NCBI GenBank assembly: GCA_963822445.1
Contig: CAWGHO010000001.1
Coordinates: forward strand, 192,001 to 256,000
Source: an uncultured Acidobacteriota bacterium
GTDB taxonomy: Bacteria > Acidobacteriota > Thermoanaerobaculia > Gp7-AA8
Length of the DNA stretch: 64,000 bases
Direction: 5' to 3'
Numbering within the stretch: the first letter of the stretch is position 1; every line of letters starts with the position of its first letter. This document shows positions 167 through 35,518 of this stretch, piece by piece. The position numbers were made by a program, and so were the translations under genes. The notes beneath the pieces were generated by a model, which saw nothing but the letters and a program-made list of their open reading frames with translations, searched no databases and was not told the origin of the DNA.

Positions 167-3100
167 ATGGGCTCTCGTTTCCAGTGGTTCGTTGTGACTC
201 TGGTTCTCTGCGCGGCATCGGCAGCGCAGGCCGGTTCGTACACCGTGACGACTACGGCCGACAGCGGGGCCGGCTCGCTGCGCCAAGGCATCCTGGACGC
301 GAACTCGGCGACGTGCACGAGTCCGTGCACGATCCAGTTCGACGCCACGCTCTTCGCGACGACGCAGACCATCAACACGGCCTCGAATCTCTCCATCACC
401 GCGAGTAACGTCACCATCGACGGATTCGCGAACGGGGTCGGCTCGGCCAACAACAGCGCGTTCGGGAGCTCGGACAACTCCGTGCAGCGCGTGGTCGTCA
501 ACGGTCCGTCGACGACCTGTTGCCCGGTGATCACCATCTCCGGCTCGAACGTCACGATCCGCGGCCTGGTCATTCAGGACGGCCAGACGGGCATCACTGT
601 CAGTGGAACCGGGAGCGCGACGATCGCCGGCTGCAAGATCGGCACGAATGCCCTCGGTACGGCCGCGGTCCCGAACCTCATCGGAATCTCCGTGAGCGGA
701 ACCAGCCCCACGGCCACGATCGGCGGCTCCAATGCGGCCGACCGCAACCTCATCAGCGGCAACAGCGGTTCGGGCATCAGCCTGGCCTCTGCCGGCAACG
801 TCGTGATCGGCAATTACATCGGCACGACCGCGCTGGGCTCCGCCTTTCTCGCCAACGCCACCGGTGTGAGTGTCTCGAACAGCAATAACACCGTCGGCAA
901 CACGTCGATGGGCAACGTCATCAGCGGCAATACGGGCCGAGGCATCGACGTCCTGCTCGGCACCGGCACGGCCATGGGCAACAACCGCATCGGCACCAAC
1001 ATCAGCGGAACGGCCGCTGTGGCGAACAACGCCGGCATCTTCGTCGGCGGCGGGGGCACGCCCGGAAGTGTCAGCATCGGCGGCACAGGACAGCCCAACC
1101 TGATCTCCGGCAATACGACCAGCGGCATCGAGATCAACAACTCCAGCGGGTCGAACATCGTGTCGTTCAACTTCATCGGATTGAACGACGGGTCCAGCGC
1201 AACGATCCCCAACGGCGGTACGGGAATCGTCCTCACGGCGATCGGCTCTTCGAACACGATCACCAACAACCGCATCGGCGGCAACGCCTTCTACGGCATG
1301 ACCCTCAACGGCGGCGCCGACACCACCATCCAGAACAACTTCATCGGCTACGTCAGCGGCACGCCCCGCCCCAATGGCCTCGGCGGAGTCCGCATCACCG
1401 CGGCGACCGGCACCACGACCGTCTTCGCGAACTCCATCCGTAACAACGGCGGCGTGGGGGTGGACGTCGATGGTGTGATCATCGGCGTAGCCATCAAGCA
1501 GAACGAGATCGCGGACAACACGGGCATCGGCATCGATCTGAAAAACGGATCCGGATCGCTCGGCGCGACGGCCAACGACGCCGGTGACACCGACACCGGG
1601 GCCGGCAACCACCTCCAGAACTTCCCCGCCATCACGTCGGCGTCCGTGGACGGCCCGACCGGCTCGTCGACGCTGACCCTCAAGTTCAACGTGGACTCCG
1701 CCAACGTCGGAACGACCCTGGGGATTCGCGCCGAGGCGTTCAAGGCCGACACCGATCCGACCAATCCCGAGGGACTCACGTTCCTTCAGGGGCAGTGCTT
1801 CGCGAGCAACAACATCAGCAATGCCACGATGACCATCCCCACCGCGGGCGTCGCCCCCGGCGACAAGATCGTGATGACCGCGACCAGCTACACGAACACG
1901 ATCTGCTCCAGTGTCAACGAGGGAACCTCGGAGTTCTCGCCCGGTGCGACCGTCGCCGTGGCACCAGGCTTCGTCATCAACACGAACAACTCCGGCGCGG
2001 GGTCCCTGCGCCAGGCCATCACCGACGCGAACAGCGGCGCGTGCGCATCGCCCTGCGCGATCACCTTCAACATCCCGAACACCGATCCGAACTTCTCGGG
2101 CGGCGTTTACACCATCCGCCCGACCACGGCGCTCCCCGACATCCTGGCTTCGAACACCACCATCGATGGTGCGACGCAGACGGTGTTCGGCGGCGACACG
2201 AACCTGAGCGGCCCGGAGATCGTCATCAACGGCTCGCTCATCACCGGGGCCTCGGCCGGTCTGCAGATCGCCGCGCTAACCGCCGGCCAGGGCAACAACA
2301 TCGCCATTCGCAATGTCGTGGTGAACGGCTTCCCGAACGAGGGCATCTTCCTGGACGGATCGGCGCTGGCCTTGACGAACATCTCCATCACCGGGAACTA
2401 CGTCGGCACCGATCCGACCGGCACCAGCGCCGTCCCGAACGCCACCACCGGGATCTACGTGGGCGGTCTCGTGAGCGGTGCCTTCATCGGCACGCAGAGC
2501 AACGGCAATCTCATTTCAGGCAACACCCAGAACGGCATCATCCTCGACGGGGCGAGCGGCAACTTCGTCCAGAGCAACATCATCGGCCTCAATGCCTCCG
2601 GCACCGCCGCCCTTCCCAACGGCTTCGTAGGCATCCAGATCAGCGGCGCGGCGCAGAACAACACGATCGGCGGCGGCGTCGCCGGCACGGGCAATACCGT
2701 CTCCGGCAACCTGCGGCAAGGCATCGCCATCCTGGACAGCGGCACGAACGGCAACGTCGTTCAAGGGAACTACATCGGCACCGATACGTCCGCCGGCACT
2801 GCCATCGGCAACGGCTGGGCAGGCATCGGGATCTGGAACGGCGCGCAGAGCAACACCATCGGCGGCACGACCCTCGGCGAAGGCAACGTCATCTCCGGGA
2901 ACGGCGAGGACGGCGTCGCCATCCGCGATCTCAACACTTCTTCGAACATTCTCGCCGGCAACTACATCGGCACGAACGCCTCCGGTTTCCTCGCCGTCCC
3001 CAACGGCTGGTACGGCGTGGACATCTTCAGCGCCGCCACGAACAACACCGTGGGCGGCAGCGTCGTTTCGGCGATGAACGTCATCTCCGGCAACACTCTC

Positions 3101-6100
3101 GGAGGCGTGCTCCTCTCCGACTCCGGCACTACCGGAAACGTGATCAGCGCAAACCGCATCGGCCTCAATGGCGTCGGGAGCGGGGCGCTCGCGAACCTCG
3201 GCCCCGGTGTGCTCATCGCCGCCGGTGCATCCGGCAACACCCTCGGCGGCGGCACGGTGGCCGCCAACGCCATCGCTCACAACGGCGCGGCCGGCGTGGC
3301 CGTCACGGGCGCCTCGATCGAAAACAACATCCGCTACAACTCGATCTTCTCCAACACCGGCCTGGGCATCGACCTCGCGAACAACGGGGTCACGGCGAAC
3401 GACGCGGGCGACGGCGACAGCGGCCCGAACGCGCTGCAGAACTTCCCAATCCTCGCGATGGCCAGCTACAACAGCGTTTCGAACCAGACCACGATCAGCG
3501 GCACGCTCAACAGCCTTCCTAGCACGCAGTTCGACATCGACTGGTATTCGAACACGGCCCTCGACGGCAGCGGCCACGGCGAAGGCGAGGTCTACGAAAC
3601 GACATCGACCTTCACCACCGACGCACTCGGCAACGCCAACGTCAGCATCATCCTGCCCGGCAATCGCCGCACCTCGAACATCGTCGCAACAGCGAGCCGC
3701 GTCAACGGACCGGTGCGCGAGACATCGGAATTCAGCGCGACCGCGCCGAACAATCCTCCCGTGGCGAACAACGACACGCCGCCCGCGACGAACGAGGACA
3801 CGCCCACGACGTTCGATCCGCGCGCGAACGACAGCGATCCGGAAGGCGGAACGTTCACCATCACCTCGAACACGCAGCCTTCGCCGAGCGCTGGCTCGGT
3901 CACCTGCTCGGCGACTTCGTGCACTTTCACGCCGGTCGCGGATTACAACGGTCCGGCCTCGTTCAACTACACCATCACCGACGACCTCGGCGCGACCGCG
4001 ACCGCCACGGTGAACATCACCGTCAACGCCGTCAACGACCCGCCCGTCGCAAACACCGACGCGATCAACACCTCTGAAGACACGCAAGGCGCGGTGAACG
4101 TGCTGACCAATGACACCGACGTCGATGGGCCGTCCGCGCTCAGCGTCACCGGCAACACGAACGGCGCGAACGGAACGGCTGTTTGTTCTCCGATCGGCAA
4201 CTGCACCTACACGCCGAACCCGGACTTCAACGGCGCCGACTCGTTCACGTACACGGTCAGCGACAGCTCCGCTGCCTCAGTCGGCACGGTCAACGTCACT
4301 GTCAACGCCACGAACGATCCGCCGGTCGCCAACCCCGACGCGATCAACACCACCGAAGACACGCCGAACTCGGTGAACGTGCTCACGAACGACACCGACG
4401 TCGACGGACCGTCCGCCCTCACCGTCACCGGCAACACCAACGGCACCAAAGGCAACGTGGTCTGCACGGCCGCCGGAGGGTGCACGTACACGCCGAACCC
4501 CGATGAGAACGGCGCGGACTCGTTTACTTACACCGTCAGCGACGGCGTCGCGTCCACGGTCGGCACCGTCAACGTGAACATCAGTTCCGTGAACGATCCG
4601 CCGGTCGCGAACACCGACGGGCTGGGTACGACCGAAGACACGCCCAACAGCGTCAATGTGCTGGCCAACGACACCGACGTGGATGGACCGTCCGCCCTCA
4701 CCGTCACCGGCAACACCAACGGCACGAAGGGGACCGCGGTCTGCACCGCGGCCGGGTCATGCACGTACACGCCGAATCCCGATCAGACCGGGACGGACTC
4801 CTTTACGTACACGGTCAGCGACGGCCTCGGCTCGTCGGTGGGCACGGTCAACGTCAACATCACCGCCACCAACGATCCGCCGCTTGCCAACCCCGACACG
4901 ATCAACACGGCCGAAGACTCCCCGGGCTCGGTGAACGTGCTGACGAACGACACCGACGTGGATGGACCGTCCGCGCTCAGCGTCACCGGCAACACCAACG
5001 GCACGAAGGGCAGCGCGGTCTGCACGGCTGCCGGCAACTGCACCTACACGCCGAATCCCAATCAGAACGGCGCGGACTCGTTCACGTACACCGTCAGTGA
5101 CGGCAGCGCATCCTCCGTCGGCACCGTCAACGTCAACATCGGCTCCGTGAACGATCCGCCCGTCGCCAATGCGGATGCCCTCACCACGAACGCGAACACG
5201 CCTGGCTCGGTCAACGTGCTCACCAACGACACCGACATCGACGGACCGTCGCCGCTGACCGTGACCGGCAACACCAATGGCACAAAAGGCACGGCCACGT
5301 GCACGGCCGCCGGCAACTGCACCTACACCCCGAACCTCAACGAGAGCGGCGGCGACTCCTTCACGTACACGGTCTTCGATGGAGCGTCGAGCGCCACCGG
5401 AACGGTCAGCGTGACCATCGGCTCGCCCAATTCTCCGCCCAACGCCGTCGACGATTTCGCCGACACGGTTCAGAACACCGCGGTGACCATCAACGTTCTG
5501 GCCAACGACTCCGATCCGGAGAGTCAGCCGCTGACGCTCGTCGCCAACACGCAGCCGGCCAACGGCGGGGTTTCCTGCCAGCCCGACGGCAATTGCACGT
5601 ACACACCGAACAGCGGCTTCACCGGTGTCGACTCCTTCACCTACACCGTTCAGGACAGCGTCGGCGCAACCAGCAATGCCACGGTGGCCATCAACGTCAG
5701 CGGCTGCCCCGAGGCGCCGGCGTTCCTCAGTCCCGCTCCGAATGCGACCGGTGTTCGGACCACGGGAAGGCTCTCGTGGGACAACACCGGCGCGGACTCC
5801 TACAACGTTTACCTCGGCCGCGCCGACGGCGACGGTTGCGACCCGCTGATCGGCTCGACGCTCGGGACGTCCATCTCGTACGCGAACCTCGAGCCCAACA
5901 CCCGTTACCTCTGGCGCGTCGAAGCGGTCAGGCAGGGCTGCCAGCCCGCCTCTAGCGCATGCGTCGCATTCACGACCGGTCCGGCTTGCAACGTATCTCT
6001 GACGCTCGTGAAGCCGCTCGGCGGAACCGTGGCGTCGCCCATCGAGTTCGAATGGCAGGCCGTCAGCGGCGCCACGGCGTACACGGTCTTCGCGAAGATC

Positions 6101-8323
6101 GGCGGCGGCGACTTCACGGAGCTCGGAACGACGACGTCGACGAAGCTCACGGCATCACTCGGTTCCGACGGCTCTATGGAGTGGTTCGTCATCGCGACCA
6201 TTCCTGGCTGCGGCAACGTCCAGTCGCCTGTCGCCGCCTTCAACCTCTGCAACAGACCGGGCAGACCTCTGGCCCGCGTCGTCGGTGAAGCCACTTCCGG
6301 CCAGCTCTACCGCGTCGAGTGGGACGCCGTTCCCAACGCCGTACGCTATGAAGTCGACCAGGCCACCAACGCCGCTTTCACCGGCGCCACCACCATCTCC
6401 ACCACGGACCTTTTCGTTGCCTACCGGCACGAGCTGACCAACGGCGCTCAGCCGTTCCACTACCGCGTCCGCGCCTTCACGGCGTGCACGCCAACCGCCG
6501 GGGACTACTCCGTTCCCATCCGCATCGTCATCATCCCGATCCCGGATCCGAGCGAACCGAACCCGAGCACGAACGTCCCCGCCGGCAGCGAGGAAGTGGT
6601 CGTGCAGACGGTCTTCATTCCGGGCGAGCCGGGACAGAACCTGCTCTATACCGCCACGACGGACCGTCCGTGGCTGACGGTGCGCCCGCAGCAGGGCGTG
6701 ATCACGCCCGCCGGCATCAACCTCGAAGTCATCGCCGATCCGAAGACGCTGCCGAACGGCACGTTCACGGCGAGCATCATCGTCACCATCACCGACGGCA
6801 CCAGCGGCCGCATCGGCACGCACGGCACGACCGTGAAGACCACGCCGTTCTCCATCAACCTGGTCACTCCGGTCTCGCCGGTCGCGTCCAAGCCGGCGAC
6901 CTCGCAGTACGCGCTGATCATTCCCACCGCCGGTCACCTCGACGGCGTGAACTCGCACTGGCAGTCCGACATCCGCGTGACCAACGCCGGGTTCAGATCG
7001 GCGCGCTATCAGTTGACGTTCACGCCGTCGGGCGGCACGAATCAGGGCGTGAAGCAGACGAACATCAACGTCGATGCCGGAGCAACGACCGCGCTCGACG
7101 ACATTGTCCGCAACTGGTTCGGTCTGGGCACGCTCAACGACGGCGCGAACGGCATGCTGGAGATCCTGCCGCTCGATGACGCGGCCACGACCTCACTCAC
7201 CACCGTCGCGTCGAGCCGCACCTACAACGTCACCGGCAATGGAACCCTCGGCCAGTACATCCCGGCCGTGCCCTTCCCGAGCTTCATCGGCAGAGCCTTG
7301 CCGAACGCATTGCCGCAGGTTCTCAGCCTCCAGCAGATCGCGCAGTCCGCGCAGTACCGCACCAACGTCGGTCTCGCCGAAGCGGGTGGCGCGTCTGTCA
7401 ACGCCGTCCTGAGCGTCTTCAACTCGGGCGGCTCGAAGCTCGCCGAGATCCCCGTCGAGCTCGCGGCCGGCCAGCAGTTGCAGATGAACCAGCTCCTCGC
7501 GACGCGCGGGATCCAGCTGAACGACGGCCGCATCGAGGTGAAGGTCACCGGCGGCGACGGCAAGATCACCGCGTACGCCTCGGTCGTCGACAGTGCAACG
7601 CAGGATCCGCTGCTCGTCAGCGGCACGCCGCTTTCGGGCTCCGGCTCCACGAAGTTCGTCCTGCCCGGCGTCGCGAATCTCGACAATGCGGTCGCGCACT
7701 GGCGCACGGACATGCGCGTGTTCAACTACGGCACGAGCTCGCAATCGGCGACGCTGACCTTCTTCCCGTTCAACAACGGTCCCTCGAAGTCGGTCCAGGT
7801 GTCGCTGCCGGTCGGACAGGTGATGACCCTCGACAATGTTCTGACGACGCAGTTCGGGTCGGAGAACACCGGCGGCGTGGTGCATCTCACGACGGCGAAT
7901 CCGGCTTCGCTCGTCGTCACGGGCCGCACTTACAACCAGACCGCCAACGGTACGCTCGGCCAGTTCGTGCCGGCAGTCACCGTCGATCAGGCTGTCGGCG
8001 TGAACGAGCGCACGCTGCACATCCTGCAGGTCGAGGACTCGACGCGGTATCGCACGAACGTCGGCCTGGCCGAGGTGACTGGCAAGCCGGTGACGGTGGA
8101 GATGCAGGTCGTGCTGCCTGACTCGAAGATCACCCCGACGATCCAGATCCCGCTCGCGGCGAACGAGTTCAGACAGTTCAACGTGATCCGGGACCTCGGC
8201 GTCGGGAACGTCTACAACGCGCGCATCACCGTGCGCGTCATCGACGGTCAGGGCCGCGTCACGGCGTACGGCTCGGTGATCGACGAGGTGACGCAGGATC
8301 CGACGTACGTACCGGCACAGTAG
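167..8323 (+). CDS. Giant secreted/surface protein (2718 aa): two parallel beta-helix modules, 7 Big_9/tandem-95 Ig-like repeats, FN3-like and BACON-like domains, duplicated C-terminal beta-sandwich pair
   Basis: Signal peptide (…ASAAQA|GS). GAGSLRQ(G/A)I motif twice. Many GNxIG/NxISGN repeats. QNFP…TSEFS ends each helix module. NDPPVANxD…GxDSFTYTVSD repeats. C-terminal units end in VVDSATQDP and VIDEVTQDP. Confidence 0.93.
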   Translation: MGSRFQWFVVTLVLCAASAAQAGSYTVTTTADSGAGSLRQGILDANSATCTSPCTIQFDATLFATTQTINTASNLSITASNVTIDGFANGVGSANNSAFGSSDNSVQRVVVNGPSTTCCPVITISGSNVTIRGLVIQDGQTGITVSGTGSATIAGCKIGTNALGTAAVPNLIGISVSGTSPTATIGGSNAADRNLISGNSGSGISLASAGNVVIGNYIGTTALGSAFLANATGVSVSNSNNTVGNTSMGNVISGNTGRGIDVLLGTGTAMGNNRIGTNISGTAAVANNAGIFVGGGGTPGSVSIGGTGQPNLISGNTTSGIEINNSSGSNIVSFNFIGLNDGSSATIPNGGTGIVLTAIGSSNTITNNRIGGNAFYGMTLNGGADTTIQNNFIGYVSGTPRPNGLGGVRITAATGTTTVFANSIRNNGGVGVDVDGVIIGVAIKQNEIADNTGIGIDLKNGSGSLGATANDAGDTDTGAGNHLQNFPAITSASVDGPTGSSTLTLKFNVDSANVGTTLGIRAEAFKADTDPTNPEGLTFLQGQCFASNNISNATMTIPTAGVAPGDKIVMTATSYTNTICSSVNEGTSEFSPGATVAVAPGFVINTNNSGAGSLRQAITDANSGACASPCAITFNIPNTDPNFSGGVYTIRPTTALPDILASNTTIDGATQTVFGGDTNLSGPEIVINGSLITGASAGLQIAALTAGQGNNIAIRNVVVNGFPNEGIFLDGSALALTNISITGNYVGTDPTGTSAVPNATTGIYVGGLVSGAFIGTQSNGNLISGNTQNGIILDGASGNFVQSNIIGLNASGTAALPNGFVGIQISGAAQNNTIGGGVAGTGNTVSGNLRQGIAILDSGTNGNVVQGNYIGTDTSAGTAIGNGWAGIGIWNGAQSNTIGGTTLGEGNVISGNGEDGVAIRDLNTSSNILAGNYIGTNASGFLAVPNGWYGVDIFSAATNNTVGGSVVSAMNVISGNTLGGVLLSDSGTTGNVISANRIGLNGVGSGALANLGPGVLIAAGASGNTLGGGTVAANAIAHNGAAGVAVTGASIENNIRYNSIFSNTGLGIDLANNGVTANDAGDGDSGPNALQNFPILAMASYNSVSNQTTISGTLNSLPSTQFDIDWYSNTALDGSGHGEGEVYETTSTFTTDALGNANVSIILPGNRRTSNIVATASRVNGPVRETSEFSATAPNNPPVANNDTPPATNEDTPTTFDPRANDSDPEGGTFTITSNTQPSPSAGSVTCSATSCTFTPVADYNGPASFNYTITDDLGATATATVNITVNAVNDPPVANTDAINTSEDTQGAVNVLTNDTDVDGPSALSVTGNTNGANGTAVCSPIGNCTYTPNPDFNGADSFTYTVSDSSAASVGTVNVTVNATNDPPVANPDAINTTEDTPNSVNVLTNDTDVDGPSALTVTGNTNGTKGNVVCTAAGGCTYTPNPDENGADSFTYTVSDGVASTVGTVNVNISSVNDPPVANTDGLGTTEDTPNSVNVLANDTDVDGPSALTVTGNTNGTKGTAVCTAAGSCTYTPNPDQTGTDSFTYTVSDGLGSSVGTVNVNITATNDPPLANPDTINTAEDSPGSVNVLTNDTDVDGPSALSVTGNTNGTKGSAVCTAAGNCTYTPNPNQNGADSFTYTVSDGSASSVGTVNVNIGSVNDPPVANADALTTNANTPGSVNVLTNDTDIDGPSPLTVTGNTNGTKGTATCTAAGNCTYTPNLNESGGDSFTYTVFDGASSATGTVSVTIGSPNSPPNAVDDFADTVQNTAVTINVLANDSDPESQPLTLVANTQPANGGVSCQPDGNCTYTPNSGFTGVDSFTYTVQDSVGATSNATVAINVSGCPEAPAFLSPAPNATGVRTTGRLSWDNTGADSYNVYLGRADGDGCDPLIGSTLGTSISYANLEPNTRYLWRVEAVRQGCQPASSACVAFTTGPACNVSLTLVKPLGGTVASPIEFEWQAVSGATAYTVFAKIGGGDFTELGTTTSTKLTASLGSDGSMEWFVIATIPGCGNVQSPVAAFNLCNRPGRPLARVVGEATSGQLYRVEWDAVPNAVRYEVDQATNAAFTGATTISTTDLFVAYRHELTNGAQPFHYRVRAFTACTPTAGDYSVPIRIVIIPIPDPSEPNPSTNVPAGSEEVVVQTVFIPGEPGQNLLYTATTDRPWLTVRPQQGVITPAGINLEVIADPKTLPNGTFTASIIVTITDGTSGRIGTHGTTVKTTPFSINLVTPVSPVASKPATSQYALIIPTAGHLDGVNSHWQSDIRVTNAGFRSARYQLTFTPSGGTNQGVKQTNINVDAGATTALDDIVRNWFGLGTLNDGANGMLEILPLDDAATTSLTTVASSRTYNVTGNGTLGQYIPAVPFPSFIGRALPNALPQVLSLQQIAQSAQYRTNVGLAEAGGASVNAVLSVFNSGGSKLAEIPVELAAGQQLQMNQLLATRGIQLNDGRIEVKVTGGDGKITAYASVVDSATQDPLLVSGTPLSGSGSTKFVLPGVANLDNAVAHWRTDMRVFNYGTSSQSATLTFFPFNNGPSKSVQVSLPVGQVMTLDNVLTTQFGSENTGGVVHLTTANPASLVVTGRTYNQTANGTLGQFVPAVTVDQAVGVNERTLHILQVEDSTRYRTNVGLAEVTGKPVTVEMQVVLPDSKITPTIQIPLAANEFRQFNVIRDLGVGNVYNARITVRVIDGQGRVTAYGSVIDEVTQDPTYVPAQ
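3751..5706 (+). repeat. Seven intragenic ~279-bp (93-aa) Ig-like Big_9 tandem repeats
   Basis: Units start near 3751, 4030, 4310, 4590, 4870, 5150 and 5430. Each has a Cys pair (e.g. VCTAAGxCTYTP). Confidence 0.9.
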
Positions 8324-30562: not shown

Positions 30563-32824
30563 TCTCCGACACGTTCTGGAAGCCGCGCGGCAGTTTGAGG
30601 CCGCGCTGGGCGCGCTTGCCGAGGTATTGCTCGAGGTCGGCGCCCTTCAGATTGGTGAAGCGCTTGCCCGCGGTGACGATCAGCGTCCCGTTCTGGGGCA
30701 CGACCGCCATGCCGACCACCTTCTCCGGCGCGATCGGCGTGCGATGCAGTTTGATGGTCTGCACGCCCTTGCCTTTCGACAGCGGCGGCAGCTCCGCGAT
30801 CTCGAACACCAGCAGCTTCCCTTCCGTCGACGCCGCCGCGACGAGATCGGTCTCGTAGCTGTGAATCCGCTGCGGCCGCATGACCGTGGCCTTGCCGGAA
30901 ACGTTCACGATCGACTTGCCGGCCTTGCGGTCCGTGACCATGTCGTCGAAGCGGATCACGAATCCATAGCCGTCATCGGTCGACAGCAGCCACAGATCGT
31001 CCGGGCTCGCCCATCATCACGCCGACGAACGTCGCGCCGCCCGGCGGCTGGAGCGATGAGGTCAGCGGCTCGCCGTGGCCTTTCGCCGACGGCAGCTCGT
31101 GCGCGGGCAGCGCGTACGTGCGGCCGGTCGAGTCGATGAAGACCGCGAGTTGATTGCTGCGCCCCTTCGCCGCGGCCAGGAACTGATCGCCCGATTTGTA
31201 CTGCAGCGCGGTGGGATCGAGATCGTGCCCCTTGCCGGCGCGCACCCAGCCGCGCTCGGACAGCACGACCGTCACCGGCTCGGACGGAATCAGCGCGGTC
31301 GCATCGAGCGCGCGCGCGGCTTCGCGCTCGACGATCGGCGAGCGGCGTTTGTCGCCGAACTCCTCGCCGTCGCGGATCAGCTCATCGCGGACCTGCTTGC
31401 GCAGACGCGCCTTCGAGCCGAGGACCTTTTCCAGTTCCGTGCGCTCGTCCTGCAGCTTTTTCTGCTCGCCGCGGATCTCCATCTCCTCGAGGCGGTTCAG
31501 GTACCGCAGTCGCAGCTCGAGGATGTATTCGGCCTGAATCTCGGAGAGCTTGAAGCGCTTCATCAGCGCCGGTTTCGGCTCGTCTTCTTTCCTGATGATG
31601 CGAATGACCTCGTCGACGTTGAGGTACGCGACCATCAGACCGTCGAGGAGATGCAGTCGCGCGTTGACGTGGTCGTAGCGATGCTGCAGGCGGCGGCGGA
31701 CCGTCTCGATCCGGAACTCCAGCCACTCCGCGAGCAGGTCGCGCAGGTTGTACAAGCGCGGCCGGCCGTCGAGGCCGATCATGTTCATGTTGATGCGGTA
31801 GGTCCGCTCGAGATCGGTCGTCGCGAAGAGGTGCGTCATCAGCTCGTCGAGGTCGACGCGGTTCGATCGCGGCACGATCACGAGCGCGGTCGGGCTTTCC
31901 TGGTCCGACTTCGTCGCGGACGTCCTCGACCATCGGCAGCTTCTTGGCCTGCATCTGCTGCGCGATCTGCTGCTGCACCTTCGTGCCGGAGACCTGGAAC
32001 GGCAGCGCGCTGATCACGATCTCGCCGTCCTCGACTTCCCACTTGGCGCGCTGGCGGACGAGCCGTTGCCGGTCTTGTACATCTCCCGGATCTCCGCCGG
32101 CGGCGTGATGATCTCCGCGCTGGTCGGGAAGTCGGGGCCTTTGACGTGCTTGGTGAGCTGCGCGAGCGTGGCGTCGGGGTTGTCGAGCAGCTCCACGCAG
32201 GCCGTCGACGATCTCCCGCACGTTATGCGACGGGATGTCCGTGGCCATGCCCACCGCGATTCCCGACGCGCCGTTCAGCAGCACGTGCGGAAGGCGCGAC
32301 GGCAGGAGCTTCGGCTCGCGCATGGTGCCGTCGAAGTTCTGCCCCCAGTCGACGGTGCCCTGCTCCAGCTCGGACAAAAGCGACTGAGCGAACCTCGCCA
32401 GCTTCGCCTCGGTGTACCGCATCGCCGCGAACGACTTCGGGTCGTCCGGCGAGCCCCAGTTCCCCTGCCCCTCGACGAGCGGATAGCGCATCGAGAAGGG
32501 CTGGGCCATGAGGACCATCGCTTCGTAGCAGGCCGAGTCGCCGTGGGGATGGAACTTGCCGATCACGTCGCCGACCGTGCGCGCCGATTTCTTCGGCTTC
32601 GAGTTCGGCCCCAGGCCGAGCTCCGACATCGCGTAAACGATGCGCCGCTGAACGGGCTTCAGACCGTCAGCAAGGTGCGGCAGGGCCCGGTCCAGGATGA
32701 CGTACATCGAGTAGTCGAGGTACGCCTTGCGCGCGAAATCGCCGACGGGGAGGTTCTCGATGTCGGGGAGCGTGGGCGGGGGTGGGTTGAAGGAGAGCTG
32801 TTGTTTGGATTTACGGGTCGGCAT
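30513..32824 (-). CDS. parC: DNA topoisomerase IV subunit A (about four apparent frameshifts)
   Basis: [51 protein letters not shown]-terminal [10 protein letters not shown]. Confidence 0.95.
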
Positions 32825-32998
32825 CGGTTCTCAAAGACGCGCATAAGGTACTTGATTCGCTCCCGTCGCGCGACAGCAAAGAATCGGGCCACGTCGATAC
32901 CCAAACGGGCTTCGCCGAGGTACTTTGTTACCGTGAGCGGGATCGCCGCGATGGAGTGCTTCTTTCCACGAACGCCAGTATTGCGACTCGTGGTCGAA

Positions 32999-33637
32999 GT
33001 GAACTGGCTGGAGCGGCTGCGCCTCGCCGTCGATCGGAGCGGGAAGAAACACAGTGTCGTCGCCCGCGACGCTGGCGTCGCGCCGACGACGCTAAGCCGC
33101 ATCCTGAACGCGCGGATGAATCCGACCTTCACCACCGTCGTGCGCATCACCCGCGCGGTCAATGAGAACGTCGGCTGGCTGCTCGACGAACGCCCTTTCG
33201 CTCTGTCCGCGGATGAGCAGAAGCAACTGCGCAAGGTGGTGCGCTTCCTCGATGACACCTTGCTGTCCTCTTCATCGTCGCGGCGCGAGCGGCCGGAGCC
33301 GAACGCCGACCATGCCGGCGGCGTGGAAGTACCGCGCGCGTACGCCGTCCGCGGCGCAAGACTGGTCTACGAGGCCTCGGGCGACTCGATGATCGGCGCC
33401 GGCATCGCCGACCGCGATCTCCTCTTCGTCAAACCGACGAAAAGCACGCGCGAAGCAGCCGGTCGCGTCGTCGTCTGCCGCGTCGACAATGCCGTGTACG
33501 CGCGTGTGCTCGATGTGCGCGCCGGCCGCATCCGCCTCCTGACCCGCAATGAACGGCATCCATCGATCGACGTCGATGCCTCGAGCCAGTTCGAGTTGAT
33601 CGGCATCGTGGTCGGCCGGAGCGGTCCGATCACGTAG
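32999..33637 (+). CDS. XRE-HTH / S24 (LexA/CI-like) transcriptional regulator
   Basis: HTH (VARDAGVAPTTLSRILN) plus GDSM..AGI.D.D S24 domain; Arg at the catalytic Lys position. Confidence 0.87.
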   Translation: MNWLERLRLAVDRSGKKHSVVARDAGVAPTTLSRILNARMNPTFTTVVRITRAVNENVGWLLDERPFALSADEQKQLRKVVRFLDDTLLSSSSSRRERPEPNADHAGGVEVPRAYAVRGARLVYEASGDSMIGAGIADRDLLFVKPTKSTREAAGRVVVCRVDNAVYARVLDVRAGRIRLLTRNERHPSIDVDASSQFELIGIVVGRSGPIT

Positions 33638-33656
33638 CAGACGTAAGATGGCGGCG

Positions 33657-34754
33657 ATGCGGAACGCCTTGAACGCCGTCGCGCTGTGTGTTGGCCTCGC
33701 GTGTGGGCCGCTGCTGCAAGGCTCGACGCCCGAGATTGTCTGGCAGTTCGACACAGCCGGTTGAGTGTTCTCTCCGCCCGCGGTCGCGGGCGATCTGGTT
33801 TACATAGGTTCGTGCTCGGGAACGTTCTACGCGCTCGACCACGATACGGGAGAGGAACTCTGGTCTTATGACATCCGTCGCGATGGAAAGCAGTCCAGTT
33901 TCCATGGGGACGTTGTTGTCGATGAGGGCGCGGTTCTGTTCGGCACAGATATGGTTTGTGCGCCCGAGGCAATCGGCCACGTCTACGCCGCGCATCCGAC
34001 GACCGGCAAAATCCTCTGGAAATATCGCTCGCCGGTCAGTGTGTCGGCGAATCTTCTGCGTATCGGCTCGTCTGTCTGTTTCGGCACGACCTTCGCGGAG
34101 TGGGGTTGTCTCGATCGAACGAGCGGACGCCTTCAGTGGAAGGCGCCGCTGACGACTACAGAGGCGACGTGCGAGCTGCCGATGTGGGGCGCTGCCGACA
34201 GCAAAAGACTGTTCGCAATCGCCCCGGATGGAACGCTTACCGCACTACGATCACAAGACGGCCGTGTACTGTGGAAGCGTCGGCTCGGTGCTCGCGCGAC
34301 GACGTCACCTCTTATCGCGAAAGGAGTTCTGCACATCGGTGCGGCGGACAACCGCGTCTATTCGCTGAACGCCGCAACAGGTCGAGTCCTGCGCGCCGTG
34401 CCTGTGCGCGGCCAGCCGGTCGGCCGGCCCACGCTTACGCGGGACGCACTGTTCATTGTGCTGAAGAATCCCAGTGACCCAAAAGGCCTGCTCGTAGCGC
34501 TCGATCCAGCAGGCAAACGCGTCAAGTGGTACCGGGAGCACCCGCGAACCTTCGCATCAGAACAACCGCATGTCTGGCGCGATATCGTCATCGTTGGCGA
34601 TTGCACCGGTGAGGTGAATGCATTTTCTAGTTCCGACGGGACGCCGCAGTGGCAGGTCAACGTCGGTGGTTGTGTAAGGAGCATTGCCAGTTCGGACGAG
34701 TATCTTTTGGTGGGGACGGAAGAGGGTGTCGTGTCGGCTGTGCGTCCATTCTGA
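33657..34754 (+). CDS. Secreted PQQ/BamB-like beta-propeller with in-frame UGA at codon 36 (candidate selenoprotein)
   Basis: ATG 33657 encodes a signal-like peptide and WQFDTAG, then TGA 33762-33764, then VFSPPAVAGDLVYIGSC in the same frame; repeated ALD..TG..LW blades. Confidence 0.8.
33775..33792 (+). promoter_or_regulatory. Candidate bacterial SECIS stem-loop
   Basis: CGCCCGC-GGTC-GCGGGCG starting 10 nt after the UGA; loop G at +21/+22. Confidence 0.55.
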
Positions 34755-35071
34755 TACGTCGATGATCGTGGCCGACATGCTCGCAAGCGTCTTCGGCTAC
34801 AGCAAAGTACAACGAGATTACCCGTGAGTTGTGTGTGTGTGTGCGCGGCATGTACTGCGACCTCGCCGTGAAACTCTGGTCGATGCGTACCGCCATCTCC
34901 CGGAACGTTCTCAAACGAGAGGCGATCGAAGACGAGCCGGCGACCCAAGTGCGCAAAAGAAGCCATCGCGAGCCGGCGAACCGCAAGCTGCAAGTACTGA
35001 AGTCAGAAAACACTGCAGACGAACCCGCGGCTGGCAGTCCGTCGGCAGAAAGGTCGCATGGCCAACGGTAA
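34750..35071 (+). pseudogene. Remnant of an HsdR_N-like restriction endonuclease gene (5' truncated, frameshifted, internally deleted)
   Basis: SDTSMIVADMLASVFGYS / KYNEITRE..RGMYCDLAVKL joined to a C-terminal-like NVLKREAIEDE. Family recognised from memory. Confidence 0.6.
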
Positions 35072-35518
35072 CGTCGTAGCCGACCGGCTGACTGGTCCGC
35101 CCGTGCCGGGCCGACCCGCGACGGTCGACAGAGCGTTTTCGCGTTGGGGCCTAAGTGATAGCTAGGCCGACGAATGACGATTCTCGCGGGGACACCTCTC
35201 CACGAAGCTCCGCGTACCTGCACGATCGTGCGTCTCAGGCACCGGGCGGCGGCCGGGGAACCCTTAACCCCACGCCGTTCGGCGCCGATCAGAAAACGGC
35301 CACCGCGATACGCGGGTCAATAGCAACCAACTGAGGGCTGCCAAGCTTTGTTATTTGTTGCTCCACTTCACACGTGTGCTGAGTGACCTGGATGAGAAAA
35401 TCGCAACTGGGGCGTTCCGCGCTTCAGGCTAGGCACAGCCTCAGACAGAGGTAGGGTTTTCGCTTCCGCTGACACTCCTAGAACAGAGCGGCTACTTAGC
35501 GGCACACGGGAGGTTTCC

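Follow-up and report, generated by a model that had tools for sequence, protein, structure and literature searches.

A predicted family of exported beta-propeller selenoproteins in Acidobacteriota and other soil bacteria

In the selenocysteine (Sec) insertion sequence (SECIS) of E. coli fdhF, the apical loop reads GGUC, and G23 and U24 contact SelB. A 2026 review (PMC13188914, legend of Fig. 2) models the bacterial form of this element (bSECIS) as a hairpin with a loop of 3–9 nt, an upper stem of 4–16 bp and a UGA-to-loop distance of 16–37 nt; the model further has a G within the first two loop positions and a minimum free energy (MFE) of −7.5 kcal/mol or lower. Table 1 of this review lists 119 prokaryotic selenoprotein families or subfamilies, of which the exported thiol/selenol oxidoreductases (DsbA-like, DsbG-like, thiol:disulfide interchange and Prx-like) are thioredoxin-like with a UxxC or CxxU motif, and none is a PQQ (pyrroloquinoline quinone), BamB or propeller family. 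Here we analyze a predicted selenoprotein of that fold, encoded at 33657-34754 in a stretch of 64,000 nt (hereafter the window) from an uncultured Acidobacteriota bacterium (assembly GCA_963822445.1; C1:192001-256000 of a 6.0 Mb genome in three contigs, 64.5% GC). From the comparative evidence presented below, it is highly likely that this is a genuine selenoprotein gene in which an internal TGA serves as the Sec codon, and the gene very probably founds a family of exported propeller selenoproteins that is widespread among soil bacteria. An earlier annotation made from the letters alone (the original prediction) had proposed Sec recoding or another programmed read-through at this site and had known of no established selenoprotein family of PQQ/BamB-like propellers, with which the table just cited agrees.

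The frame that opens at ATG 33657 (a second in-frame ATG at 33648 being an alternative start) begins with the hydrophobic N-terminus MRNALNAVALCVGLACGPLLQG, runs through EIVWQFDTAG to the TGA at 33762-33764, and continues past it as VFSPPAVAGDLVYIGSCSG..., open for 329 codons up to the stop TGA at 34752-34754. Except for the alternative start, these elements were described in the original prediction, and they are all present in the sequence, as are the perfect 7-bp stem CGCCCGC/GCGGGCG (33775-33781 and 33786-33792) with a GGUC loop at +21 to +24 (the T of TGA being +1), the TGT at 34671-34673 that encodes Cys339 in WQVNVGG-C-VRS, and the motifs GSCSG (Cys53) and GDCTG (Cys316). A TAAGAT −10 box had been claimed as well; as a promoter scan of 33300-35100 gave 0 sigma-70-like sites, the box is a resemblance alone.

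Of the 86 homologous loci in which the alignment column of the TGA is covered, which come from Acidobacteriota and four further lineages, 84 have TGA there; the TGA-bearing homologues are 28–45% identical to the query. In 41 relatives, 6 of 6 homologues have TGA at this column, where four full-length homologues (31–36% identity) and one partial homologue each carry a single TGA, within the motif W-x-[FH]-D-[TA]-x-G-U-[VL]. A pattern scan of GTDB (one genome per species) yielded 74 loci with TGA at the column in 72, the exceptions being L079, which is devoid of the N-terminal part, and L077, which reads TGGA through a 1-nt insertion. When a Cys-form query was run against 401 genomes of the phylum, it gave 12 matches in 11 genomes; 11 of these matches carry TGA, 6 of the 11 being loci new to the count. 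The non-TGA exceptions among the 86 are L077 and L133, where the codon is GCC (Ala). Among the 84 TGA loci, L015 (from G030) and L018 (from G002) come from unpublished genomes and are both rows of alignments A2 and A4, and no conclusion hangs on unpublished genomes alone. According to record titles, the carriers are mostly Pyrinomonadaceae, with others in Blastocatellia, Terriglobia, Bryobacteraceae, Ca. Sulfotelmatobacter, Ca. Acidiferrales and Ca. Angelobacter, and outside the phylum in Gemmatimonadaceae, Ca. Eisenbacteria, Ca. Krumholzibacteriota and a 'Deferribacteres' metagenome-assembled genome (MAG). All 120 matches listed from 5.8 billion proteins (40–100% identity, 295–342 aa), named 'PQQ-binding-like beta-propeller repeat protein' by NCBI, begin at or after residue 37, as is usual where gene callers cut a selenoprotein gene at its Sec codon; because of this truncation, the public records are without the signal peptide.

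An internal TGA might be explained by a nonsense mutation or a sequencing error in a decaying gene, the more so as a gyrA/parC-like gene 1–3 kb upstream is split by a frameshift and real lesions occur in some homologous loci (L077, L129/L076, L096 and L101). However, the same TGA recurs in 84 independent assemblies, the downstream frame is intact for 310–350 codons in 61 of the 84, and the active-site residues are invariant. We give this explanation next to no probability and consider it effectively refuted by the conserved TGA; judged by the homologues, the TGA at 33762-33764 is not a lesion. As for the irregular loci themselves, L077 (3990-4000) has TGGA for TGA, which shifts the frame, and its hairpin is retained with a compensatory T-A pair; in L129/L076, a second TGA stands where Trp is conserved, with no hairpin after it; and L096 and L101 are frameshifted shortly past the hairpin. 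These lesions may be decay or assembly errors. L049, at the end of a 4.2-kb contig, has two W...G-U motifs (2899 and 3923) separated by ∼1 kb, perhaps from tandem duplication or else from faulty assembly. L091, from a Blastocatellia MAG, continues for 519 codons past the Sec codon and not the usual ∼330, which suggests a C-terminal extension or fusion, and in L084, from a Terriglobia MAG, the frame before the Sec gene is open for 580 codons with no stop to separate what precedes.

The hairpin of the window fits the bSECIS model, with a 4-nt loop, a 7-bp stem, 17-nt spacing and an MFE of −16.3 to −18.2 kcal/mol. Across the hairpin alignment A2 (78 sequences, 77 distinct), the MFE is −7.5 kcal/mol or lower in 77 of 78, and the MFE fold shows the loop at +21 to +24 in 66 of 78. 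Of these 78 sequences, 67 have GGTC as the apical loop, 9 have AGTT and 2 have GGTT, with no exception to the central GU (loop positions 2-3). In the 8-pair stem, 78.9% of cells pair. The covariation score, 0.323, is attained by 0 of 500 column shuffles (0.156 ± 0.012) and compares with no more than 0.145 for a slid partner. Pair 27-36, which joins two codon wobble positions, is CG in 53 sequences, UA in 9, UG in 6, GC in 4 and unpaired in 5, while the likewise wobble-wobble pair 24-39 has 23 double changes; such covariation at synonymous sites is indicative of RNA-level selection. Val43, whose codon supplies the invariant G-U, is found in 84/84 Sec forms versus 7/15 non-Sec forms. Given these properties, the hairpin at 33775-33792 behaves as a SECIS.

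The stem, however, is built from the codons of P-[AT]-V-[AV]-G, which makes coding a confound. With codons re-drawn from each gene's own usage as a synonymous null, the mean MFE was −9.03 kcal/mol versus −12.24 kcal/mol for the real sequences (mean z −1.19), so that much of the hairpin comes from the protein motif, with a further ∼3 kcal/mol from codon choice. That coding alone gives a stable hairpin is one of the points that favor two separate frames, namely a 35-codon open reading frame (ORF) that ends at the TGA and a propeller gene that starts at GTG 33765, the hairpin being a by-product, a regulatory element or a terminator. The GTG lies directly past the TGA, many database calls start there, and a scan flags the hairpin as terminator-like. 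Yet a conserved signal peptide and the invariant, confidently modelled strand W-x-[FY]-[DE]-T-G-G are both encoded before the TGA, and a product from Val37 would be without the export signal and the closing strand. Furthermore, the codon past the TGA is ATC, ATT, CTG or CTC, and thus no start codon, in many loci, the T-run behind the hairpin is weak and unconserved, and the covariation at synonymous sites speaks for selection on the RNA. Two separate frames are in our opinion very unlikely.

The machinery for Sec insertion is complete in the host. The genome search proposed with the original prediction found selA (488.6 bits), selB (368.6) and selD (371), all above curated cut-offs in profile scores, and selC as tRNA-SeC(tca) at C3:112948-113045; selA was also above cut-off in 10/10 other carrier genomes tested. 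A genome-wide scan for TGA plus hairpin in an open frame gave 263 candidates, mostly spurious frames at 64.5% GC, which were used solely to pick fdhA, a peroxiredoxin and a rhodanese-like gene for checking [Table 1]. In the host fdhA, peroxiredoxin and selD, the loop of the hairpin begins with GG and lies 16–18 nt past the TGA, as in the propeller gene, and these hairpins are the positive control for the propeller hairpin. Read-through of UGA without selenium, by a near-cognate tRNA that inserts Trp, Cys or Arg or because UGA is a sense codon, would also give a full-length product; in silico data cannot tell the inserted residue, and Cys, as the residue in some homologues, would suffice chemically. 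On the other hand, TGA is an ordinary stop in the carrier genomes, where the propeller gene itself and 26 of 60 other complete, aligned homologues terminate with it, selA and selB are free of internal TGA, and the hairpin's spacing and GG-loop match the SECIS elements of the host's own fdhA, peroxiredoxin and selD in a genome with full Sec machinery. We assign only a slim chance to such read-through.

Several observations weigh against Sec recoding of codon 36 and temper the above. The loci are phylogenetically related, so that locus counts overstate independence. The co-occurrence with selA is uninformative because 40 of the 41 relatives have SelA, with or without the propeller gene. With respect to the hairpin, much of which the motif P-[AT]-V-[AV]-G yields by itself, only 19 of 78 sequences fall under the 5% tail of their own nulls and 5 of 78 do not improve on the median of theirs; pair 28-35 is an A-C or other mismatch in 13 of 77 distinct sequences; and in L133, the sole non-Sec homologue available as DNA (from the unpublished genome G190), a 4-bp stem remnant is left. 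Nevertheless, Sec recoding as originally predicted is supported by the conserved TGA column, the conserved and covarying 3' hairpin, the distant homologues with Cys at the UGA column and the presence of all four sel genes, which are the checks that had been proposed for it.

An AlphaFold2 model built on a 69-sequence alignment (predicted local distance difference test (pLDDT) 93.6, predicted TM-score 0.88) groups with BamB eight-bladed propellers in Foldseek (E = 1e-23), and the downstream ORF matches Pfam PQQ_2 (PF13360) with 116.6 bits against a gathering threshold of 27.6. Within NCBIfam release 20, no model is passed by the propeller protein, which stays under the cut-offs for BamB (TIGR03300, 121.3 vs. 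285.2; NF008351, 88.6 vs. 423) and for PQQ-dehydrogenases (TIGR03075, 80.1 vs. 480.05; TIGR03074, 26.7 vs. 832.65). The pLDDT is 87 for residues 21-30 and 97 for residues 31-40, and by the order of strands in DSSP, strand 26-32 would be the closing strand of the last blade. In the model, the loop of residues 33-41, which connects to strand A of blade 1, contains Sec36, and the B-C loop (52-55) of the same blade contains Cys53; propeller topology in general puts D-A and B-C loops on one face. The N-terminus is modelled as a helix (3-15) at low pLDDT. A hydrophobic 10-mer (mean Kyte-Doolittle ≥ 1.8) is present in 67 of 75 homologous N-termini having a start codon, and a relaxed xx[GASN]C motif in 42 of the 75, the typical Pyrinomonadaceae form being ...SLSC-AQ. 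A predicted export signal upstream of the TGA is sensible only if the TGA is read through.

Relatives without TGA were collected from a search of 1.84 billion representatives and a second word-index search, which gave few full-length proteins, at 28–36% identity. Column 36 is Cys in nine of them (P0162, P0272, P0273, P0274, P0183, P0240, P0241, P0263 and P0258; 28–34% identity), of which eight carry Cys53 as well, a residue found in none of the five database homologues with Ala or Pro at 36. The genomic locus L133 has Ala36 and Ala53, so that with it the combination of Ala/Pro36 and Cys53 stands at 0/6. The co-occurrence of Sec or Cys at 36 with Cys53 suggests a selenenylsulfide redox pair, and of the 'redox or metal-binding' role originally suggested, it lends weight to the redox half. 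Among the 61 aligned Sec forms, Cys53, His83, Asp98, Phe82 and Val43 are invariant, and D76 (59), Q79 (54) and H108 (53) nearly so; conservation of His83 and His108 is poor among the non-Sec forms. W29 is invariant in all 69 aligned sequences. Cys316 and Cys339, each present in 47 of the 61 Sec forms, are jointly present or jointly absent in all 16 compared sequences, and Cys101 and Cys172 behave in the same way bar one sequence (P0263). These two pairs are probably structural disulfides of an exported protein. The Sec forms far outnumber the others, with 120 of 120 nearest clusters listed against ∼9 Cys and 6 Ala/Pro forms found.

In the mechanism that we propose, SelB and tRNA-Sec of the host would recode UGA codon 36 to selenocysteine, directed by a SECIS that lies inside the coding sequence 17 nt downstream and is formed by the P-A-V-A-G codons. 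The product would be an exported, possibly lipid-anchored, eight-bladed propeller of the BamB/PQQ_2 type, of ∼340 residues after signal removal. Sec36, in the loop into blade 1, and Cys53, in the B-C loop of blade 1, would lie on the same face as a redox-active selenenylsulfide pair, with His83 and Asp98 (both invariant) and the conserved residues D76, Q79 and H108 possibly around it. The best-supported guess for the function is thus that of an extracytoplasmic Sec36/Cys53 oxidoreductase [Table 1].

Table 1. Predicted features of the propeller selenoprotein gene, its upstream neighbor and genes with in-frame TGA elsewhere in the host genome. Positions are those of the window unless a contig (C1 to C3) is given.
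Feature	Position	Strand	Remarks
Selenoprotein gene (predicted)	33657..34754	+	365 codons including one Sec codon, plus TGA stop
N-terminal export signal (predicted)	33657..33731	+	Hydrophobic segment, ends ...VGLAC-G; possibly lipoprotein Cys; upstream of TGA
Beta-strand, residues 26-32 (EIVWQFD)	33732..33752	+	DSSP strand E26-32; encoded before TGA
Sec codon UGA, residue 36 (predicted)	33762..33764	+	TGA at column in 84/86 loci; Cys in 9 distant homologues
SECIS-type hairpin	33775..33792	+	7-bp stem, apical loop GGUC 33782-33785, 17 nt past UGA
Cys53 (GSCSG)	33813..33815	+	Proposed resolving partner of Sec36
His83, in conserved DGxQxSFHG loop	33903..33905	+	His in 61/61 Sec forms vs. 4/8 non-Sec forms
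Asp98, in GTDxxC loop	33948..33950	+	Asp in 61/61 Sec forms vs. 3/8 non-Sec forms
Cys316 (GDCTG)	34602..34604	+	Likely disulfide partner of Cys339
Cys339, TGT (WQVNVGG-C-VRS)	34671..34673	+	Repeat position equivalent to Sec36
True stop codon, TGA	34752..34754	+	No SECIS-like hairpin after it
HTH_3/HTH_31 plus peptidase S24 gene (LexA/CI-like repressor)	~33000-33637	+	TAG stop 33635-33637
fdhA with in-frame TGA	C3:472183		TIGR01553 830.4 bits vs. 814.2; loop GGUCU 18 nt past UGA
PrxQ-like peroxiredoxin (TPGUT)	C1:1065032	-	U at peroxidatic position; loop GGUUC at 16 nt; under NCBIfam cut-offs
selD with TGA in motif GGUACK	C2:1710860		Loop GGA at 17 nt
Rhodanese-related gene with in-frame TGA (YCTUP)	C3:885789		88.6 bits vs. 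cut-off 115

In the window, the predicted selenoprotein starts 11–20 nt past the TAG stop of the upstream HTH/peptidase-S24 gene, with which co-transcription is possible. The listed ORF of that gene (32066-33637) is far longer than its domain-bearing part (residues 316-516). Farther upstream, the gyrA/parC-like gene (Pfam DNA_topoisoIV, 30973-32824, minus strand) is split into two overlapping ORFs, 31382-32824 covering profile positions 1-256 and 30973-31881 covering 271-431; the split is a frameshift, whether in a pseudogene or as an assembly indel. A 2718-codon ORF lies at the start of the window (167-8323, plus strand). Downstream of the propeller gene are genes for DUF5919, a beta-carbonic anhydrase and a methyltransferase. 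When the ORFs at 20-48 kb of the window were compared with the conserved neighbor clusters of other loci, no neighbor was shared.

The neighbors in the GTDB loci include a UbiE/ArsM-like S-adenosylmethionine methyltransferase (24 loci), whose best NCBIfam matches are ArsM/UbiE-type and all under cut-off, a ChrR-like cupin (23), a THAP4-like beta-barrel (16; 22.6 bits, under the Pfam cut-off of 25) and a divergent LysR regulator (13). Genes of selenoneine biosynthesis are found as well, namely senA (NF041186) in 10 loci, at 468–505 bits against a cut-off of 420, and senB (TIGR04348) in 11 loci, at 355–374 bits against a cut-off of 300. One or both lie within 4 kb of the propeller gene in 14 of the 74 loci, in at least four arrangements that include methyltransferase-senA-senB-cupin-propeller, divergent and downstream placements, and this linkage is confined to one Pyrinomonadaceae subclade. 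Several Pyrinomonadaceae MAGs (L036, L040, L045, L056, L076 and others) carry methyltransferase, senA, senB, cupin and Sec-propeller as a compact same-strand run, while another subclade has the run LysR (divergent), THAP4-like barrel, methyltransferase, Sec-propeller and cupin. We considered a general functional link to selenoneine and rejected it, as the host genome has no senA or senB above cut-off and, of the 25 senA-positive genomes among the 401 (one of them, G092, unpublished), two carry the propeller gene and only one has it adjacent. Because the linkage is restricted to one subclade, is absent in the host and is adjacent in 1 of 25 senA genomes, the sen neighborhood is, by the genomes compared, a lead and not a general property. 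In the phylum sample, G153:C1:1207006-1208166 is a SenA-family match of 421 bits, just above cut-off, with one in-frame TGA, which could be a Sec-containing or a broken senA paralogue.

Apart from the review cited above, the text and supplements of deep-Sep (PMC12013277) and BSepDB (PMC13326102), so far as accessible and possibly without the BSepDB family table, contain no propeller selenoprotein, and in the full-text literature we found no description of a propeller, PQQ or BamB selenoprotein. The family is thus unlisted among current selenoproteins and is cut short in public gene calls, a systematic annotation error that affects each of the 120 nearest listed public records. If confirmed, it would add a beta-propeller fold class and a U-x16-C motif to a prokaryotic selenoproteome dominated by thioredoxin-like folds. 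As a Sec-dominated family common in the abundant soil Acidobacteriota (Pyrinomonadaceae), it may point to an unrecognised selenium-dependent extracytoplasmic activity in soils, and its senA/senB neighborhood in one clade offers a testable lead on companions of selenoneine biosynthesis. Conceivably, though we regard it as rather doubtful, all of this could be combined into the first beta-propeller selenoenzyme, a lipid-anchored extracytoplasmic Sec/Cys oxidoreductase for selenium or other chalcogen species that works in Pyrinomonadaceae with a methyltransferase-cupin-THAP4-like module and senA/senB. Such a combination, if true, would tie together two branches of selenium metabolism in soil Acidobacteriota, that of proteins and that of small molecules.

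Compared with the systems described so far, the recoding mechanism is textbook, and what is new is the family, the fold and the U-x16-C arrangement. Like the SECIS elements of E. coli fdhF and of the host's own fdhA, the propeller hairpin lies directly 3' of the UGA within the ORF and its loop starts with GGU (GGUCU in the host fdhA and GGUC here, 17–18 nt past the UGA). Unlike fdhF-type elements, its stem is short (7–8 bp) and made of P-[AT]-V-[AV]-G codons, with no lower stem or bulged U seen. BamB (YfgL) is likewise an eight-bladed PQQ_2-type propeller of similar size with an N-terminal signal and a possibly lipidated Cys, and the BamB proteins of E. coli, Klebsiella and Moraxella match the model in Foldseek with template modelling (TM) scores of 0.77–0.82 at ∼19% identity; BamB, however, has neither Sec nor the Sec/Cys pair nor the DGxQxSFHG loop. 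The patchy spread of the propeller gene, which is present in 11 of the 401 sampled genomes of the phylum, is one that we take not to fit a core subunit of the beta-barrel assembly machinery. The tetrathionate hydrolase of Acidithiobacillus ferrooxidans (PDB 6l8a and 7cqy) is also an eight-bladed propeller (TM 0.73–0.77), a PQQ-free enzyme whose substrate is an extracytoplasmic chalcogen compound, but it has a longer chain (445–457 residues), 16–17% identity and no Sec, and this fold-level match is silent on chemistry. With the selenoneine cluster senA/senB, the family shares proximity in the loci described above, whereas the propeller is no described member of that cluster, and the accessible text of the 2022 preprint is without the words 'propeller', 'PQQ' or 'neighbor'. 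A further parallel would be the exported thiol/selenol oxidoreductases, which also have a single Sec, a nearby resolving Cys, Cys homologues and a canonical in-frame bSECIS; in place of their thioredoxin-like fold and closely spaced motifs, the present family is predicted to set its Sec on a beta-propeller, with the partner Cys 17 residues off.

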